Made by a program: the position numbers and the translations under genes. The notes beneath the pieces are model-generated. The model saw nothing but the letters and a program-made list of their open reading frames with translations. It ran no database searches and had not been told where the DNA came from. A stretch of 12,487 nt of DNA from Gemmatimonadota bacterium (lineage in GTDB: Bacteria; Gemmatimonadota; Gemmatimonadetes; Gemmatimonadales; GWC2-71-9): assembly GCA_036679645.1 (NCBI GenBank), contig JAZDCY010000094.1, positions 1 through 12,487 of the forward strand. Reading direction: 5' to 3'. Positions 1 to 12,487 of the stretch are shown here, piece after piece (within the stretch, counting starts at the first letter, position 1; every line of letters starts with the position of its first letter).

Positions 1-114
1 CGGCGCGCAGTTCCGCGATGGTCATTGCCGTGCCCCAGAGGTCGGCGGCACCGCCGAACACGTAGCGGAGGATCTCGCCCTTGCCGGAGTCGGCCACAGA
101 CTTGGCAGCGCCGA
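1..114. repeat. Terminal direct repeat, copy 1 (114 bp); circularisation overlap
   Basis: 1-114 (cggcgcgcag...ttggcagcgccga) is identical to 12374-12487, giving a unit length of 12,373 bp. Confidence 0.98.
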
Positions 115-556
115 GCGCCACGTCGGAGCCGTCGTACAACTGGCAGCGGATGTTGGCCCCGAGGCCCGCGAAGGACGCCCAGATATGCGCGGTGAAACCC
201 ACGAGCGTTGCGGGGCCTGGCGGAGCCAGTAGCACCCTGTCCGTTTCGATGAGCTTCATTGTGAGCGCGCCGGAACCGGCGTTCTGTGACGACGCGACGG
301 TGCCGTCCTCTGCGCCCTCTGCGTTTGCGAGTGAGTCGGTCCACGAGCTACCGGCCTCGATCTCCTTGATGGTGAAACCGTATCGGCCCTCGACGTCGGC
401 GTAGCCTGGCAGGATGTCAATGTCCATTTCCGGCGCGGCGGGGCCGCCCGACGTGCCGATGAGGGCGACCCGAGCGCCGGGGTCGGCGACGGTCGAGGGA
501 ATGATGCGGCGGCGCTCCTGCAAAAACTCTTGTACCACCTGGCCGACGCCGTCCAT
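1..556 (-). CDS. 5' part of junction-spanning 219-aa beta-rich protein, putative spike / receptor-binding protein (continues at 12373-12270)
   Basis: Absent from the ORF track because it crosses the end. Manual translation from ATG 556 (TAATG overlap with upstream stop): MDGVGQVVQEFLQERRRIIPSTVADPGARVALIG...GANIRCQLYDGSDVALGAAKSVADSGKGEILRY, in frame with the 12270..12470 ORF; 556+104=660 nt. Confidence 0.88.
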   Translation of the reverse strand, partial: MDGVGQVVQEFLQERRRIIPSTVADPGARVALIGTSGGPAAPEMDIDILPGYADVEGRYGFTIKEIEAGSSWTDSLANAEGAEDGTVASSQNAGSGALTMKLIETDRVLLAPPGPATLVGFTAHIWASFAGLGANIRCQLYDGSDVALGAAKSVADSGKGEILRYVFGGAADLWGTAMTIAELRA

Positions 557-1287
557 TACAACCACTCGCGCTGCACGATTACCGGCGAGGTGTAGATCTC
601 GACCTTGGCGTACCCGACAATGATGCGCGTCGCGGCCGGTGTGTCTACGTACGTGCCTCGCATGACGAGCGCCACGTCGAGCGTATCGCGCCGCGCGATG
701 CGCAGGGCGGCCGGGAGGAACCGGCGGGCGCTGAACGTCCGCGACGGGACCGCGTCGGTGAAGTTCCCGGCCGGGAATGATTCGGCGATCATGTAGTTGC
801 GTGCCGTGTCGGGCGTGACCTGTCCGGCGGCCTGGTCGTTCTCGATCGCGGGGAGATCGACACGTCGGCTGTTCCATTGGCCCGCCCGCAGGCCGAGGTT
901 GCGCTCGATGACGATGGCGGCGCTGATGCCGTTGGTGTCGCCCCATGCCGTTATGGTGCCCGCCGATGGAGTTGCGGCCCCCGTCGGGTCCGTCGGTCTC
1001 AAGTCGATGTCTGCGCCGTGAAACAGGAAGTCCCCCGCGTTCTTCGCGTCGATGGACTTCAAGAGCCACCATGCGCTTTCGCCGCTGGCGATGGCGTCCC
1101 CAGCGAGCACGGTCAACTCGTGGAACCATGCGCGGTACGGCCGCAACGGCGACATGATGTCGGTGAGCGGTGGGCGGGCTGGCTTGCGCGGACCTGACGC
1201 CCCCGGCGCGGCCTGGCTGCCAATGCTGACTGTGATGCCAGCCCTCGCGAGGCGCGGATTGGGGTGCGGTTGGCTGAGGGTGGTCAC
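556..1287 (-). CDS. Beta-rich structural protein, possible penton/vertex or minor jelly-roll capsid protein (243 aa; start uncertain)
   Basis: GTG start 3 nt after the upstream stop; stop overlaps the next ATG; C-terminal alternating hydrophobic strands (LRIARRDTLDVALVM...IIVGYAKVEIY); lies in the structural block. Confidence 0.7.
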   Translation of the reverse strand: MTTLSQPHPNPRLARAGITVSIGSQAAPGASGPRKPARPPLTDIMSPLRPYRAWFHELTVLAGDAIASGESAWWLLKSIDAKNAGDFLFHGADIDLRPTDPTGAATPSAGTITAWGDTNGISAAIVIERNLGLRAGQWNSRRVDLPAIENDQAAGQVTPDTARNYMIAESFPAGNFTDAVPSRTFSARRFLPAALRIARRDTLDVALVMRGTYVDTPAATRIIVGYAKVEIYTSPVIVQREWL

Positions 1288-1290
1288 GGG

Positions 1291-1812
1291 CTACAGGTTC
1301 TTGTTGATGCGCTTGCCCATGAGTGCGAGGCGGGCGGTTGGCGCGATGTTGTCCGAATCGTTGTAGAGAGTGCAGCGTATCTGCGCACCCGGCGCGGCGA
1401 CGAACTGATGCAGCGGGAAGATCTGGCCGCCGGGGATCGAACACAGCGCGGCGGCGGGGACGGGATCACTCTGCCAGCGTTGGCCGCCCGCTTCCAGTTC
1501 CATTCGGAAGTGAGAGAGCGAGAGCCCGGTGTTGAGCGTGCCGCTGGCGTTGGTGTTCTCAATCCAACCCGGACCAGCGCCCAGCGTCGAACCCTCCTCG
1601 TCGGCCACGTGCGCTGGTAACAGGAACATATTGGACACGACGAAAATGGTTTCGCTGTCAACGGTGACGGTGGCGTCGTCGCTGGTCAGCGTCCCGACGG
1701 CCGTATCCCACTCGATCATGTAGATGTAGCTGTAGTTGTTCGGCGCGTGGATCTGGCCGAGGTTGTCGATGCCCAAGTGTTGCAGAACGTCGGCGACGCT
1801 GTTCAGTTCCAT
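1291..1812 (-). CDS. Putative second single-jelly-roll capsid protein (173 aa)
   Basis: AGGAG RBS 7 nt before ATG; beta-strand pattern (YSYIYMIEW, TVTVDSETIFVVS, FRMELEA, IRCTLYN, ARLALMG); C-terminal half parallels the 227-aa upstream protein. Confidence 0.7.
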   Translation of the reverse strand: MELNSVADVLQHLGIDNLGQIHAPNNYSYIYMIEWDTAVGTLTSDDATVTVDSETIFVVSNMFLLPAHVADEEGSTLGAGPGWIENTNASGTLNTGLSLSHFRMELEAGGQRWQSDPVPAAALCSIPGGQIFPLHQFVAAPGAQIRCTLYNDSDNIAPTARLALMGKRINKNL

Positions 1813-1831
1813 GTGGTGGCTCCTGTTGTGA

Positions 1832-1864
1832 AAATGTCCCGCACACCGTTGGGTGTGCGGGCAT
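1832..1864 (-). terminator. Intrinsic terminator-like hairpin after the putative major capsid gene
   Basis: Minus strand CCCGCACACC-CAAC-GGTGTGCGGG (perfect 10-bp stem, 1838-1861) followed by ACATTTT, 17 nt after the stop at 1879. Confidence 0.7.
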
Positions 1865-1878
1865 GGAGGAGAGAGAGA

Positions 1879-2562
1879 TCAGAGGTTGGCGGGCGAGACG
1901 AGGATGCCCTCGATCTGGCAGACGAGTATGACGGGAGCCGCCACGGCTATGGCCACGTCGTTGGTGACGCGCACCCGCAGCGTCTTGCCGGGCAGCGCCG
2001 CAATCGGGTAGCGCAGTCCGTACTTGTTTGCGAGTGCCGGGATGCCGTTGGTGTACGCGATGGACTGGTGGTATACGGCGGCGATCTCGCTCGTGCATGA
2101 GGTCATCGCTGCGCCGATGCCGAGCGGGTAGTTTTCCATGCCTTGCCCGTCGATGAACGTCCGCGAGCCGATGGTCCCGACCACTCGGCCGAGCTGCATC
2201 ATGCCGCGTACGTCTTCCGCCTGCAAGATGGGGAGAACGCTAGCCAGACCGAGATCCGCACCCGCCTCTGCGGTGTAGTCGGTGCTGTGGCCGTGTATGA
2301 CGTTGAACCCGAAGTGAGTCACCCAGAGCGCGTGCTCCTCGGGGAGTCCCGACGCGCCCGGCCAGTTGGTGATGTACTCCGACTCCGACGCGCTGAAAAA
2401 CGTGCGCGACGTGAAGCCGCCGACGGCTACGTCGGTGCTGTGAAAGTACGTCGCGGGGCGCACGTTGTACTGCTGAAGATCCAAGGGCGTCACGCGCCCG
2501 GTGAGAACGCGGTCAAAGACGGCCGCTGTTTCGCTGTTGAGTCCGGGCCACTTGGTTGCCAT
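1879..2562 (-). CDS. Putative major capsid protein, single jelly-roll type (227 aa)
   Basis: AAAGGA RBS; followed by a terminator-like hairpin, suggesting high expression; beta-rich with RTFF...TNWPGASGLPEEHALWVTHFGF and PIAALPGKTLRVRVTND...ILVCQIEGIL. Fold assignment is inference. Confidence 0.65.
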   Translation of the reverse strand: MATKWPGLNSETAAVFDRVLTGRVTPLDLQQYNVRPATYFHSTDVAVGGFTSRTFFSASESEYITNWPGASGLPEEHALWVTHFGFNVIHGHSTDYTAEAGADLGLASVLPILQAEDVRGMMQLGRVVGTIGSRTFIDGQGMENYPLGIGAAMTSCTSEIAAVYHQSIAYTNGIPALANKYGLRYPIAALPGKTLRVRVTNDVAIAVAAPVILVCQIEGILVSPANL

Positions 2563-2713: not shown

Positions 2714-3355
2714 TCACGTGCTGAGAGCGTCTGCGAGCGCTTCGAGTTCATCGACGGCCATTGCGTCCTCGCGGGCGTCGGTGATCTGCAACGGGTCGTT
2801 TGGGTCGTCTGACTCGCCGAGTGCGCCGCCCTCGATGCCCTTGAGTCCTGGCACCTTCGCGAGCATGCCGCCCGCCACGTCGAGCGCCGGGCTCATTAGC
2901 CCGCCGATCACGATGGCCCTGGTGTCGGCTGCGTTCAGCCCCGCGAATTTGCGCAGGACCATGCCGAGTGCGATGGCCGCGCCCGCCTTGGCGAAGATGC
3001 GAGACGTGCCCTTCTTGAACTGCGGTGGGATGGGTGCCTTGTCCACGATCAACTGGACGCCGATGAATCCGGCCGTGCCGAACGCGACTTGTTTCGGCGC
3101 ACCGGCGGGAATGAATGTGAACGCGCGGGCCTTCCGGGGTGTCCGCCGCTTCTTGCTCGTTTTCCTTCTGGCCACGGTTTTTCTCCTTGTCGGTTTCCGG
3201 GTGGTCCGGCGTTTGGCGGTCGTGCGCTTCTTGGTCGTGCGCTTCCTGGTGCTCTTGCGGGTCGTCTTCTTGCGAAGGTTCCGGCGGCGCGTGGCGCGTC
3301 CCTTGGCGAGTACTGCCAGTTGCTTACGTGAGAGTTTGCGTTTGCGCTTGGCCAT
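2714..3355 (-). CDS. Arg/Lys-rich histone/protamine-like protein with hydrophobic segments and acidic tail; putative genome-condensing core protein (213 aa)
   Basis: GGAGG RBS 8 nt before ATG 3355 (alternative ATG 3361); the first ~75 aa are dominated by K/R/T (RKKTTRKSTRKRTTKKRTTAKRRTTRKPTRRK), then Gly/Ala hydrophobic helices, then GALG followed by an acidic tail (ESDDPNDP...DELEALADALST). Confidence 0.85.
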   Translation of the reverse strand: MAKRKRKLSRKQLAVLAKGRATRRRNLRKKTTRKSTRKRTTKKRTTAKRRTTRKPTRRKTVARRKTSKKRRTPRKARAFTFIPAGAPKQVAFGTAGFIGVQLIVDKAPIPPQFKKGTSRIFAKAGAAIALGMVLRKFAGLNAADTRAIVIGGLMSPALDVAGGMLAKVPGLKGIEGGALGESDDPNDPLQITDAREDAMAVDELEALADALST

Positions 3356-3357
3356 GT

Positions 3358-4023
3358 TCATCGCCTCCCGAGGATGCGCCGGGGCGTGCGGGTAAAGAAC
3401 CAGAGGGCGGCGAGCCCGAGCAATACGCCGGTGCCTCCGAGTGCGAATCCAAACGATGCCGGTGTGATGCTGCGGATGGCCGTGACCATCGCCCCCTCGC
3501 TGGCGTTGTTCCAGTCGATGCGCGAGGTTGGCGGGTTGCGCTTCCACGGGTTGACGTTCTCGCCGCGGCGCTTCCGCTCTGCCTGCACGGCCACGAGCGC
3601 GTCCTGGCTCGCGTCGTCGGCCTGGTTCGAGCGGAGTTCGAGCACTGGCAGCAAGCGGCGCATCTCGCCCAGGTCGATCGCGACGGACAGCGCCCAGGAC
3701 TCAATCGACGGTACGCCGCGATGCGCCCGGCCCCGGTAGGGGTTGCGGGCGATGTCGGCGCGGGCTTCGTCAATGAGCACGCGAGCGAGCGCGGCGAAAC
3801 CCTCCAAGGTGCCGACGGACTCGCCGAACACGGCGAGCGGCGGGATGGACTTGCCGCCGAGTTTCCCGACCATGCTCTGGTGGAGTTTGCGCATGCCGAC
3901 GGTGCGGGCCTGGTACGCCATGAGCGCGTCAACTTGTAGAGCTGCTCTGCGTTGGTCTCGCGCGAGCACAAAGCCGACGCGGCCGAGTTCCCCGAGGTTG
4001 GTGTCTGCGTGTTCCAGGTACAT
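3358..4023 (-). CDS. Putative virion membrane protein with C-terminal TM anchor (221 aa)
   Basis: Likely start ATG 4023 (MYLEHADTNLGELG), 2 nt after the upstream stop; C-terminal FGFALGGTGVLLGLAALWFF followed by a basic tail RTPRRILGRR. Confidence 0.8.
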   Translation of the reverse strand: MYLEHADTNLGELGRVGFVLARDQRRAALQVDALMAYQARTVGMRKLHQSMVGKLGGKSIPPLAVFGESVGTLEGFAALARVLIDEARADIARNPYRGRAHRGVPSIESWALSVAIDLGEMRRLLPVLELRSNQADDASQDALVAVQAERKRRGENVNPWKRNPPTSRIDWNNASEGAMVTAIRSITPASFGFALGGTGVLLGLAALWFFTRTPRRILGRR

Positions 4024-4025
4024 GG

Positions 4026-4493
4026 TCAGCTTCCCAGTAGCAACAGTGCTGCCGCGCCGCCCGCAACCATGAGCGTCACGGGGTTCGTGCCCAGCGTCTT
4101 GGCGATCGACGTGATGTCCGCAACCGGCCTGCCCGTTATTTGTGATGCACGGGCCACCTGCGCCTGGATGGCCTTCACCCGCGCCCTGGCCTGCGCTTCG
4201 GCCGCCTGTTTGGCCTTCTTCTGTTTGAGCGCCGCCCTCTTGACGATGGCCCTCTGTTCCGGGTCGAGTTGCGCCCCGACGGCGAGTACGGCTCCGCCCG
4301 CCGCCGGTCCCCCGTAGATCGTCGCGGCGGTCGCGCCTGCGATGATCGCCGTTTTGGTGAGCGTGTTCTTGTTGCGCTTCACAAACTTCGAGAAGACCGA
4401 GCCCATCTGTCCCATACCCTGGTCCGACTGCGCAAAGCTGTCGATGTCGAGCCAGTCGATGAGCTGTGTGCTGTGTGCTTGTGCGGTGGTCAT
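4026..4493 (-). CDS. Putative virion membrane protein, DWLDIDS paralogue B (155 aa)
   Basis: Acidic leader IDWLDIDS..GMGQMG, internal hydrophobic stretch, basic helical region, hydrophobic C-terminus; shares two motifs with 4503..4874. Confidence 0.85.
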   Translation of the reverse strand: MTTAQAHSTQLIDWLDIDSFAQSDQGMGQMGSVFSKFVKRNKNTLTKTAIIAGATAATIYGGPAAGGAVLAVGAQLDPEQRAIVKRAALKQKKAKQAAEAQARARVKAIQAQVARASQITGRPVADITSIAKTLGTNPVTLMVAGGAAALLLLGS

Positions 4494-4502
4494 GGCTCAT
4501 AT

Positions 4503-4874
4503 TCAACGACGCTTTTTGACGATCAGGGCCACGGCGACTGCCGCGACAACTGCGGTGGCTACGGTCCCGACGAGTGCGGGCCTGGCGGACGACTGTGCTG
4601 AGGGCGCTGTAGCGCCCGGAATGACGATGATTTGCGGGGCGGCGGCGGCGGCGGATGCCGGGGCTCCGGACCTGGTTGCAAACGCCGACGCGAATTGCCC
4701 GGCGGTCTTGGTGAGCGTGGCGAGGTTGCGCTGCAGGAAGTTGCCGAACAGAGTCCCGGTACCGCCGGGGTTGTCGGTGATGGATGACGTCTGCAACGAG
4801 AGCGGGAGGATGGCCGCCCCGAGTGCGCCGTCGGTTCCCATGCTGTCAATGTCGAGCCAGTCTAAATCGAGCAT
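4503..4874 (-). CDS. Putative virion membrane protein, DWLDIDS paralogue A (123 aa)
   Basis: GGAG RBS; leader LDWLDIDSMGTDGALG; C-terminal TM LVGTVATAVVAAVAVALIV followed by KKRR. Confidence 0.85.
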   Translation of the reverse strand: MLDLDWLDIDSMGTDGALGAAILPLSLQTSSITDNPGGTGTLFGNFLQRNLATLTKTAGQFASAFATRSGAPASAAAAAPQIIVIPGATAPSAQSSARPALVGTVATAVVAAVAVALIVKKRR

Positions 4875-6475: not shown

Positions 6476-7036
6476 CTACACGTTTATCAGCCATACTTTG
6501 CGCCTTCCGTGGCGTGCCTCGTTGCCGACGCGCCGCATCTCCTGCGGGTCGAACGCGAGCGCCTTGCCGGACCCGGTGACGACTCCCGCGTAGACGTGCG
6601 AGAACGCGAAACCGCCCGGCTCGGCGATGGTGATGAACACGGGAGTGAACCCAGCGCCGAGCAACAGCGCGGCGGCGAGCGGTGCCGACTCGTCACAGTC
6701 AACGCACGCGCGTGCGCCGCCGGTCGTAGAGGCGGCGATCTCTTGTAGAATCAGGTCCGGGTGCTTGATCCGCTCGACGCCCTTGGGGTCCTTGCAAAAG
6801 TCTACGTTGCGCTGCATCCACTTGAACAAAGCCACGAGCCGCGCGGGGCGGGAGTCCGTCCCCGCCACGATCCGCGCGGCTGTGGCCCGTGTGTTCCCTC
6901 GCTCATTGGCATCTTGCACGAGCGAGCGCATGGACGCGATCGTATCGGCGACGCCCCGGTCCCCTTTGGCGAGCGGTATCCGCAGCGCTTGCTCAGTGTC
7001 CGGGTGATGGATTTCGAGAACGTCGCCGAGTGCCAT
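6476..7036 (-). CDS. Transglutaminase-like (papain-fold) Cys-His-Asp enzyme, putative cysteine protease (186 aa)
   Basis: GGAG RBS; ALFKWMQRNVDF..DP..VE, catalytic-type VDCDE, FSHVYA and AFDP motifs in the order typical of the transglutaminase-like superfamily. Confidence 0.85.
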   Translation of the reverse strand: MALGDVLEIHHPDTEQALRIPLAKGDRGVADTIASMRSLVQDANERGNTRATAARIVAGTDSRPARLVALFKWMQRNVDFCKDPKGVERIKHPDLILQEIAASTTGGARACVDCDESAPLAAALLLGAGFTPVFITIAEPGGFAFSHVYAGVVTGSGKALAFDPQEMRRVGNEARHGRRKVWLINV

Positions 7037-8937: not shown

Positions 8938-10093
8938 GTCCGGTCTCCGGTGATGTGGTGAATGTGCGCATTTCGGCCTCGATCTCCGCCACCCAGTCTG
9001 CGTACGGCCCGAGTGCGGGCGCTGCGCCGACCAGCAGCGCCGCCACGTCGCCGACTTCGCCATCCGCTAGCGACTTGACCAGCGCCTCGGCCGTCCGTGC
9101 GACCGCGCCGCCCTGGTGTCTTGCGTGCTCGAGCCTGTCGAATAGGACCGATGCGTACGCGCTCGCCTCGGCACCCGGCGACTGCGCACCGCGCAGTAGG
9201 TCCTCGACAATTGCCCGCAGCAATGTGCGCGCTTCCTCGGCCTCCTTGCGCTCCTGGTCGATCTGCGGCGCGGCCGTGGTGGGCGCTGGGTCTGCTGTCG
9301 CCGCGCCCAGCGCTTCGCGGTTGGCTTTCAGTTCCGCCACGACAGAGGGCAAAGTGCTCTGGATGAGATCGGCGAGCAACGAACCGCCCTCGCCTCCGGG
9401 CGCTACGTCCGACGCGAGGTCGCGCATGGTCCTGATCGCCTCGGACAGTTCGCCCATCCCCGACCGCTTGTCCATCATCGCAATCAGGTCGAGCGTGCTG
9501 GGTCGGTTGTCCATGACCATCTTGAGGATCCCGGTGGCGGCGGTGATGCACGTTGGGAGAATCGCCACAAACTGGTTTTGCGCCGCCGGTTCGCGTCGGG
9601 TGCGCAGTGCTTCCAAGATCTCCGCGTGTTGCTCGCGCATCTCTTGTAGTTCGGCGGCCGACACGACCGCGCCCGTACGTGCAGGGCCTCGCGCCGGTGT
9701 GCGTGGCGAGTCCAGCGGTTTGGCGACGGTGAATCGCAGAGTCTTGTTGACGCCGCCGCCGCCGCCGGTCACGATCAAGCGCCGAACATAGTCGCCCGCA
9801 TCGACGCCCTCTGCGTACTCGCCTTCGTCCCACTGGCGCATGTCCACGTTGCCGAGCGTCTGCTCTGCCCCGTTTACGATGCGGCGCACGCGGTAGAAAG
9901 CTGAGTACGGGCCTGGGCTTGCGCGGCGGAACCGGCGGACCAGGTCGATGGTCTCGTGTGTGCTGTGATCTTCCGGTACCTGGAACCCTTCGGCGAGCGC
10001 GTCCTCTGGCAAACGCTGCTCCTCGGGCGTCGTGTCGGCGTCGTCCAGGTCGGGGGTGGCTGCTTCTGCGCTGTTGTCGTCCGTTGCTGTCAT
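8789..10093 (-). CDS. Hypothetical 434-aa protein (acidic N-terminus, small beta domain, long helical region, acidic tail)
   Basis: GGGAG RBS and ATGA overlap at 10093 (MTATDDNSAE); the ORF-track extension to 10477 overlaps rep and reads as off-frame sequence. Confidence 0.85.
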   Translation of the reverse strand: MTATDDNSAEAATPDLDDADTTPEEQRLPEDALAEGFQVPEDHSTHETIDLVRRFRRASPGPYSAFYRVRRIVNGAEQTLGNVDMRQWDEGEYAEGVDAGDYVRRLIVTGGGGGVNKTLRFTVAKPLDSPRTPARGPARTGAVVSAAELQEMREQHAEILEALRTRREPAAQNQFVAILPTCITAATGILKMVMDNRPSTLDLIAMMDKRSGMGELSEAIRTMRDLASDVAPGGEGGSLLADLIQSTLPSVVAELKANREALGAATADPAPTTAAPQIDQERKEAEEARTLLRAIVEDLLRGAQSPGAEASAYASVLFDRLEHARHQGGAVARTAEALVKSLADGEVGDVAALLVGAAPALGPYADWVAEIEAEMRTFTTSPETGHEEEEEEDDGDGHSGAEGMGADNARHTGPRRTEAERTPSDSHDNGAGAG

Positions 10094-11172
10094 TCGTGCT
10101 TGCTCCCTGCGTGAGTTTTGGCGCTGGTTTCGGTGGCGTCGAGCACCGCTACGACCGCATTTCGGAAAATCGGGCCGATCGCAATCTGCCGCGCCGTGCG
10201 TTCGCCGGATTTCAGTTTGCGGATGGCGTTGTCCGCCGAGCGCCGGGCGAACCCGTCGAGCGTGCCCGTTACTTCGTCGAGCGCGGCGAGGATCTGCGCC
10301 TCGTTGAACCGATCGAACGTCTGCTCTAGGGTGACGCGCTCGGCCTCGACGCGCTGTGCTTCCTGTGTTGCGTGCGCCGCGTCGGCCTCCGCCTGGCGTT
10401 GCCGTTGCTCGCGCGCTTCGTCGCCGCGTTGCTTGAGGTCGGCGCGCCGTGTTTCGTCCGCCTGAACCTCCGCGCAAAACTCCGGGTCATCCACGAGTTT
10501 CCCGACGAATCCGCGCACGTTTTTCGGCTTGCGCTCGTCCGCTCGCTTCAGCGCAGCCATGACGACGGCCGCGCCGACGTGGTTGCGCGTCGCCTCTGCC
10601 CTCTGTTCCGAAAACCCTAACAGAATCAACGCGGCGGCGGCGGCTTTGGCATCGGCCTCGCTATCGCGGGCGCACGCGTGCGTACGTGCGTGCGTGCGTT
10701 GGCCGCCGCCGTATTCTGTATTCCCTGGTTTTGAGGGGAAAGTGCGCAAAGGCTTGCGCCTTTGCTTCGCGCCCAGATCGGTCAGTTTTGACCGATTACC
10801 GGGTTCCAGATCGGTCACAATTGACCGATCTAGGTCGTCTAATTCGGTCAGTTCTGACCGATCTAGCTCCGCCAGTTCTGCAATCTGTTGCGCAGGCATC
10901 CCCCGTTTTGCCACTGGGATAAAAAAAACATGCTCGGGTTGTATTAGGTATCCCTGCCCTTTTTTTCCCATTCGGTCGGATTTCACCAATCCGACGGTTT
11001 CGAGCCGCGCGATGGAGCGCTGCACGCTCGACGTGCTCACACCGAGCGACCGCGCGATAGCGCTGTGCTTGGCGGTTAGGTGTCGGTGCTCGCTGGCTGT
11101 CCACATAGCTAAAAACACTCGTAAATCGCGCCCATCGACGGCCTGGGAGAGGGCGTTTAGGAGTTCTCGCAT
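10090..11172 (-). CDS. Replication initiator with N-terminal winged HTH and internal iterons (lambda O / DnaD-type organisation; 360 aa)
   Basis: GGAGG 9 nt before ATG 11172; HSAIARSLGVSTSSVQRSIARLETVGLVK wHTH; repetitive linker (LDRSELTE/LDRSIVTD/GNRSKLTD) and RTHARTHACAR; C-terminal KPKNVRGFV helical domain. Confidence 0.8.
   Translation of the reverse strand: MRELLNALSQAVDGRDLRVFLAMWTASEHRHLTAKHSAIARSLGVSTSSVQRSIARLETVGLVKSDRMGKKGQGYLIQPEHVFFIPVAKRGMPAQQIAELAELDRSELTELDDLDRSIVTDLEPGNRSKLTDLGAKQRRKPLRTFPSKPGNTEYGGGQRTHARTHACARDSEADAKAAAAALILLGFSEQRAEATRNHVGAAVVMAALKRADERKPKNVRGFVGKLVDDPEFCAEVQADETRRADLKQRGDEAREQRQRQAEADAAHATQEAQRVEAERVTLEQTFDRFNEAQILAALDEVTGTLDGFARRSADNAIRKLKSGERTARQIAIGPIFRNAVVAVLDATETSAKTHAGSKHE
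10775..10864. repeat. Three 24-bp palindromic iterons at 33-bp period; putative replication origin
   Basis: agatcggtca-gttt-tgaccgatta (10775), agatcggtca-caat-tgaccgatct (10808), aattcggtca-gttc-tgaccgatct (10841); core TCGGTCA-N4-TGACCGA; flanked by A/T-richer sequence. Confidence 0.85.
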
Positions 11173-11250
11173 CCGGTGCGTCCTCCGTTTCGGGTCGGTC
11201 AATCGTACTTGCGTCGGCCGCCCGATCGTATGGCCATAAAAACAACGGTG

Positions 11251-11884: not shown

Positions 11885-12277
11885 TCAGATTGGCAGATCG
11901 TCGGCCGGGAACAGTAACAGGTTGTCGGTCGGGTCGAGCCTCGCGATCTCGTCAACCTGCAACTCGTTGGCGCGGGCGTCGCTGGTGATGCACAGCGCCA
12001 CGAGCACGTCCTGGCGATCGTACTCCGTCCCGCCGCGCCTGCGTCCCTGCGCGTCCTGGTCGGGCGAGATCGCCCAACTGCGAAAGTGGCGAGTGAGCGT
12101 GTCGAACAGTCGGCCGGTGTGTGACTCGCCGATGTACAGAACCTCGCGCGTGCGGGCGTCGATGATTGCGTACGCGCCGCTGGCATGTTTGTGGCGCAGG
12201 TCGTCGAGTCGAGCGACGTACTGCCCGTCGCCGTGCGCTGGAGCGAACGCCGTGCGTAGGCCCAGGGCTTTAGGCAT
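11885..12277 (-). CDS. GIY-YIG superfamily nuclease-like protein with non-canonical catalytic positions (130 aa)
   Basis: SGAYAI...EVLYIGES, L..T L.RHF and ANELQVDEIARLDPTDN correspond to the GIY, YIG, R-helix and E...I...P..N motifs; ATG 12277 overlaps the upstream gene end. Confidence 0.8.
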   Translation of the reverse strand: MPKALGLRTAFAPAHGDGQYVARLDDLRHKHASGAYAIIDARTREVLYIGESHTGRLFDTLTRHFRSWAISPDQDAQGRRRGGTEYDRQDVLVALCITSDARANELQVDEIARLDPTDNLLLFPADDLPI

Positions 12278-12487
12278 TGAATGTGTAGTGCGCAAAGAGT
12301 CGTATTGCGTCGATGTTGACGGTCGTCTCGCTGAGGTCTGTGACCTGGTACCACGCCGCCAGCTTGACGCCGTCGGCGCGCAGTTCCGCGATGGTCATTG
12401 CCGTGCCCCAGAGGTCGGCGGCACCGCCGAACACGTAGCGGAGGATCTCGCCCTTGCCGGAGTCGGCCACAGACTTGGCAGCGCCGA
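12270..12487 (-). CDS. 3' part of junction-spanning putative spike / receptor-binding protein
   Basis: ...SVADSGKGEILRYVFGGAADLWGTAMTIAELRADGVKLAAWYQVTDLSETTVNIDAIRLFAHYTFNA*. The FGGxxDLWG...IDxIRL pattern resembles beta-sandwich domains of phage/surface proteins (recalled, not searched). Confidence 0.85.
   Translation of the reverse strand, partial: GAAKSVADSGKGEILRYVFGGAADLWGTAMTIAELRADGVKLAAWYQVTDLSETTVNIDAIRLFAHYTFNA
12374..12487. repeat. Terminal direct repeat, copy 2 (114 bp)
   Basis: Exact copy of 1-114; it lies inside a coding frame, as expected for an assembly overlap of a circular molecule. Confidence 0.98.

Follow-up and report, generated by a model that had tools for sequence, protein, structure and literature searches.

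Two adjacent predicted single-jelly-roll capsid genes and a conserved intergenic hairpin in a small circular genome

Two adjacent open reading frames (ORFs) in DNA from a Gemmatimonadota bacterium (contig JAZDCY010000094.1 of assembly GCA_036679645.1; the whole 12,487-nt stretch is called the window) raise the question of how a viral shell would be built from two predicted jelly-roll proteins whose genes are separated by a hairpin. A sequence-only reading had proposed a pair of single-jelly-roll (SJR) capsid proteins, with one dominant capsomer, a minor paralogue and a terminator between the genes. Following the present analysis, we consider it fairly probable that ORF A encodes a single major capsid protein (MCP) forming rings, and that ORF B encodes a minor jelly roll, probably the penton, with its output stepped down by the conserved hairpin. 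The features concerned are as follows.

1879..2562, minus strand: ORF A, 227 aa, predicted vertical SJR major capsid protein with predicted head-to-tail self-association
1831..1864, minus strand: hairpin with a U4 tail, likely a leaky terminator or mRNA-stabilising stem, with a counterpart of different sequence after A in 10 of the 10 loci compared
1820..1824, minus strand: Shine-Dalgarno-like AGGAG sequence of ORF B; purine-rich sites also precede B in the other loci
1291..1812, minus strand: ORF B, 173 aa, predicted SJR with an N-terminal helix, likely a minor capsid (penton-type) protein
12374..12487, no strand: 114-nt copy of bases 1-114, where the assembly overlaps itself on the 12,373-bp circle

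The circular genome and its capsid gene pair

The window is an entire contig of its assembly and carries the same 114 nt at both ends. An independent contig of 12,403 nt (run X1) spans the junction with zero differences from the window, and the molecule is therefore a closed circle of 12,373 bp. All of its assignable genes lie on the minus strand, and it is likely the complete 12.4-kb genome of a tailless bacterial virus. The tetranucleotide fit of the window to its assembly was 0.95, compared with 0.97-0.99 for other contigs of similar size, which means that this bin may not be the host of the circle. By its rRNA, the assembly itself looks like Gemmatimonadota. No spacer-length or attachment-site (att) match to the window was found within the assembly, and 2 of the 401 genomes of the class, the source assembly included, held a family match. 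Run X1 also contained a second collinear relative (11,970 nt) at a depth of 84, alongside the window's circle at a depth of 52.

The lengths, strand and C-termini of both proteins were as the sequence-only reading had quoted them. Both were predicted to fold as jelly rolls, and their top three or four fold matches were vertical-SJR capsid chains, rather than the unrelated folds which that reading had named as counting against it. The best structural match of A (227 aa) was VP4 of SPV1 (Portogloboviridae; PDB 6oj0; 178 modelled residues), to which it was 12-13% identical when the structures were aligned, without a match at the sequence level. For B, predicted as an N-terminal helix followed by a compact barrel, SPV1 VP4 ranked first in a tie with chain b of HHIV-2, which lacks the first 40 residues and for that reason is taken here to be the VP9 penton; the fold matches of B tie between penton-type and MCP chains. 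A search of BFVD returned unnamed or mixed jelly rolls, among which SPV1 VP4 stood at rank 24 with the highest TMq of the matches listed.

When four copies of A were modelled as a complex, head-to-tail self-binding was predicted, forming a ring without a partner. A conservation test on this predicted self-interface was negative. The homologues of A are of single-barrel length. A search of 50,697 phage records with A (tblastn) gave no match, and word-index protein searches returned just one close relative each, besides two more B entries that were known already.

The sequence-only reading had aligned the C-termini of the two proteins by eye. BLASTP of A against B reached E 0.21 in another region, and the C-terminal similarity was absent from both BLASTP and two-sequence profiles. 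Family profiles (149 A against 11 B sequences) aligned A186-224 with B136-171 in the same register as the eye had done (P 0.0034, probability 9.6%), which is suggestive only. The paralogy of A and B, based on this weak profile match and on the nearest fold that they have in common, is likewise suggestive, while the proposed dominant capsomer agrees with the ring predicted for A alone. In the window the two genes share a reading frame, 69 nt apart if the stop is counted. Readthrough from A into B, giving a double jelly roll, was rejected, as just 2 of the 10 loci keep the genes in one frame.

The hairpin after ORF A and its recurrence

Ten loci were compared, namely the window, L221 (genome G691, from a class-level genome search), and the 8 of 215 motif-scan loci that passed the A profile; the remaining motif-scan loci, mostly chance matches, were dropped. 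The distant L241 also matched, among 248 loci. G542 was dropped (E 1.8e-4, one stop), having failed the ORF-level profile. Related-locus scans found nothing in five cases and gave one false positive, L001, a polB-type phage.

The spacer between A and B is 66 nt long and contains the perfect 10-bp hairpin that had been described from the sequence (1838-1861: CCCGCACACC, a 4-nt loop, GGTGTGCGGG), followed by a U4 tail at 1831-1834. Only two perfect stems of at least 10 bp occur in the circle, this hairpin being one, and when the bases of the spacer were shuffled 5000 times, no perfect 10-bp stem arose. Beyond one bulged A the stem is extended by AUG/CAU (1834-1864; -22.7 kcal/mol). The hairpin was passed over by a consensus terminator scan with a threshold of 5 T in 8, because only four U follow it; a canonical intrinsic terminator has a GC-rich stem and at least 5 U in 8 nt, and here the stem is accompanied by four U only.

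A hairpin was observed within 75 nt past A's stop in all ten loci, with energies of -20 to -32 kcal/mol and a different sequence each time. Their mean z was -2.7 (30 shuffles each) against -0.6 at 25 other gene ends (p 2e-4). The tails held at least 3 T in 8 nt in nine loci, and at least 5 T in only two. Of 128 convergent gene ends in the window's assembly, 43 had such a hairpin, 7 of these with at least 3 T, in a comparison based on crude gene calls from a bin that may not be the host. The A-B spacer ranges from 66 to 376 nt across the loci, and in L221 an ORF of ~66 aa sits between the hairpin and B. With a U tail that falls short of a canonical U-tract, the hairpin is likely either a leaky terminator or an mRNA-stabilising (decay-blocking) stem. 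What had been called a terminator stands as a conserved hairpin, and not as a terminator called by the consensus scan. A pyrimidine run, UCUCUCUCUCCUCC (1865-1878, minus strand), precedes the hairpin and can pair with B's ribosome-binding site or start codon in folding models, where it could act as a second, translational brake on B.

A scheme for termination, stoichiometry, hexamer and pentamer numbers and the membrane can be inferred from these features. A and B would likely be co-transcribed, with most transcripts ending at, or trimmed back to, the hairpin 20-45 nt past A's stop. The short U tail would allow some of them to continue into B and the following ORF C, each with its own ribosome-binding site. 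A would build homo-hexameric capsomers, while B would occupy the twelve vertices and hold C and downstream components of the spike. Shell assembly, without a packaging ATPase, would take place around DNA that a Lys/Arg-rich protein encoded just upstream has condensed, and an inner membrane is probable, as in SPV1. If so, the conserved hairpin would be a simple and testable device for setting capsid stoichiometry.

Packaging, neighbouring genes and relatives

No Walker A motif was found in the six frames of the closed circle, and no ATPase family among the 22 ORFs scanned (Pfam, PHROG). The P23-77 ATPase gave no tblastn match to the circle, in a search so insensitive that the SH1 control reached only E 0.16. 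L221 and L161/L224 showed few Walker A matches, all of them in non-coding frames or low-complexity protein. The motorless state is established for the close clade, and is limited to it because three distant Planctomycetota loci (L249-L251) carry a KaiC/DnaB-like ATPase. The other features of the circle are listed here.

556..1287, minus strand: ORF C, 243 aa, beta-rich, conserved third gene of the module, with homologues after B in 8 loci counting the window
2714..3361, minus strand: Lys/Arg-rich (25%) protein with a hydrophobic C-terminal half, conserved directly upstream of A
1..559, continuing 12373..12270, minus strand: 220-aa ORF in an open frame across the circle junction, 1..559 being its 5' part
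6476..7036, minus strand: transglutaminase-like protein in which Cys, His and Asp occupy the aligned places; its BLASTP match to a Pfam Transglut_core protein from L249 has E 3e-6
10090..11202, minus strand: winged helix-turn-helix (wHTH) protein resembling replication initiators (PHROG replication-initiation matches, E 8e-5 to 5e-3)
10772-10864, inside the wHTH gene: three palindromic repeats with 33-nt spacing, adjoining the lowest-GC stretch of the circle; a candidate replication origin
11885-12295, minus strand: 136-aa ORF without a Pfam match, with what we take to be a GIY-YIG-like motif

B follows A in all ten loci and C follows B in eight, the sequence of the remaining two stopping short of that point or not having been read; the basic protein precedes A in all 8 loci whose contig shows it whole. 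B is the most divergent gene of the module (conservation 0.075, against 0.121 for C; the basic protein also exceeds B), in a comparison biased toward A by collecting the loci with an A motif. From its position, C is likely a vertex or spike part. The Lys/Arg-rich protein, which has a weak histone H1-like HC2 match below the cut-off (E 0.023), is likely a DNA-condensing, membrane-linked core protein. Two adjacent small hydrophobic proteins (4026-4493 and 4503-4874, minus strand) have a common N-terminal LDWLDIDS-like motif and a 41-nt repeat, and are likely paralogous membrane proteins. ORFs similar to the 136-aa ORF come after the structural module in L018, L046 and L221.

Relatives are integrated in Phycisphaerae genomes. 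Three of the 401 genomes searched in that class gave matches, one of which was later dropped, as did 4 of 401 across the Planctomycetota phylum. L161 is part of a 307-kb contig from a Phycisphaerales metagenome-assembled genome, and P0156, whose source name is Phycisphaeraceae bacterium, is the B of L221 minus its first eight residues. The L221 provirus is located between Fur and gamma-glutamyltransferase genes and carries an integrase, and host genes flank L161/L224; no attachment-site repeats were identified at the provirus loci and no tRNA lies alongside. A ParE-type toxin-antitoxin pair adjoins the integrase (L221:13532-14114), and the L161 and L074 proviruses are both near a proline-tRNA-ligase-like gene, a label read from the translation. 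L161 has a rolling-circle-type Rep-like gene at the position of the window's wHTH initiator, which suggests that replication modules have been swapped.

More distant loci were also observed. In L222:9200-11322 (genome G327, of the same class as the window's assembly), a basic/hydrophobic gene is followed by three tandem paralogues of 227-249 aa that align clearly and have short gaps between them. The A profile recognises two of the three (E 1e-10 and 6e-4), and the locus is possibly an MCP duplication in progress. L249, L250 and L251 (G969, G935, G808) are proviruses of Planctomycetota, rich in AT, that carry a distant homologue of A (profile E about 1e-12), a longer next gene (243-300 aa), a transglutaminase-like gene and the ATPase, which is Cys-rich; two of them have a hairpin after the MCP stop. 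Eight viral scans of IMG/VR gave one confirmed, distant locus.

In our judgement there is an even chance that the circle belongs to a large lineage of small bacterial viruses, so far undescribed, which comprises at least 150 clusters (50% identity) and Planctomycetota proviruses and keeps a single-MCP motorless capsid. Its relatives seem to span proposed steps, from one MCP without an ATPase (the close clade), through one MCP with a RecA-type ATPase (L249-L251), to tandem MCP paralogues (three in L222), and if so the MCP duplication scenario could be tested on living genomes. The single-MCP motorless capsid has been proposed as ancestral to Singelaviria, and to date just two species, both archaeal, are known to have it. 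A diverse bacterial lineage of this kind would widen the design to another domain and to ordinary habitats, and would provide a new virus type for Planctomycetota. The lineage is missed by Pfam and PHROGs, and largely by IMG/VR.

Competing readings and known systems

Halopanivirales (Singelaviria) include the Thermus phage P23-77 (Matshushitaviridae) and SH1, HCIV-1 and HHIV-2 (Sphaerolipoviridae). Like the window, they encode two vertical SJR proteins side by side, with lengths of about 170-185 and 230-290 aa, and their chains rank just under SPV1 in the fold matches. A and B could thus be co-major capsid proteins as in this order, or a split double jelly roll, with heterodimers forming pseudo-hexamers and the hairpin tuning their ratio or stabilising the message. 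Sizes and folds fit, yet we find this reading unlikely. Self-binding is predicted for A, B varies more than any other gene of the module, and no ATPase was found. The profiles of A, B and C scored 0.3 bits or less against VP16/VP17 and VP4/VP7, and VP9 likewise gave no sequence match to the profile of A or of B. P23-77 and SH1 have the small gene first with gaps of 9 and 1 nt, whereas the window has the large gene first, then a strong conserved hairpin in a spacer that reaches 376 nt among the loci; this agrees with the difference in design that the sequence-only reading had proposed.

It is also quite doubtful that A is the sole MCP and B a minor component other than the penton (cement, sub-capsomer or peripentonal), with C as penton or spike base. 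The better conservation of C within the module agrees with such a role, as does the SPV1 entry, in which B matches the hexameric VP4 chain better than a vertex chain; the N-terminal helix before a compact barrel and the tie with HHIV-2 chain b argue for a penton instead. Very improbable, finally, is a plasmid-like or satellite element whose jelly rolls are carbohydrate-binding or surface proteins. The structural scores of A and B are all middling, cellular jelly rolls rank close below, and A, B and C have no match in Pfam, PHROG or PDB sequence searches. Against this, the leading fold matches are capsid chains, the nearest Atlas clusters are 85-100% viral, and the module is found in small circles and in proviruses that also encode a basic core protein, proteins of membrane type and a transglutaminase-like protein.

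With A as the MCP and B as the minor jelly roll, the known systems can be compared. In Halopanivirales both proteins are abundant, at 12 VP4 to 15 VP7 per asymmetric unit in the available text of PMC6414509; the large protein has a second stacked barrel, whereas A is predicted as one, and an FtsK/HerA-type packaging ATPase is encoded, which was not found here. The ATPase-less FLiP and Odin groups have a fused double jelly roll, unlike the single-barrel A homologues, among which A-B readthrough is not conserved. Charybdis elements (4.6 kb) are a different system in the available text of 10.1101/2025.08.03.668216. Our literature searches found no bacterial ATPase-less vertical-SJR group, which supplements or subscription papers could still describe.

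SPV1, with VP4 hexamers and VP10 pentamers, has a circular genome, two SJR proteins and a nucleoprotein core (PMC8459092), and the available text of PMC8812541 gives it no packaging ATPase. The window shares the circular genome, the two predicted SJR proteins and the lack of a detected ATPase, and encodes hydrophobic proteins besides the basic one, where SPV1 has an inner lipid membrane, a nucleoprotein coil and a T=43 shell. With one major SJR, one pentameric SJR and no ATPase, SPV1 is the closer comparator than P23-77/SH1. The Portogloboviridae are defined by an SJR MCP like SPV1 VP4, a Sulfolobales host, no recognisable initiator and a circular ATPase-less genome of ~20 kbp. SPV1 infects Saccharolobus and has 20 kb; the window, with a VP4-like predicted MCP, is circular and without a Walker A motif but has 12.4 kb, comes from a bacterial assembly, encodes an initiator-like wHTH protein, and has relatives that integrate in Phycisphaerae. 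The window thus works like Portogloboviridae but lies outside them by host and replication gene, and outside Halopanivirales by ATPase and sequence homology, and the likely virus is probably new at the family level or above.
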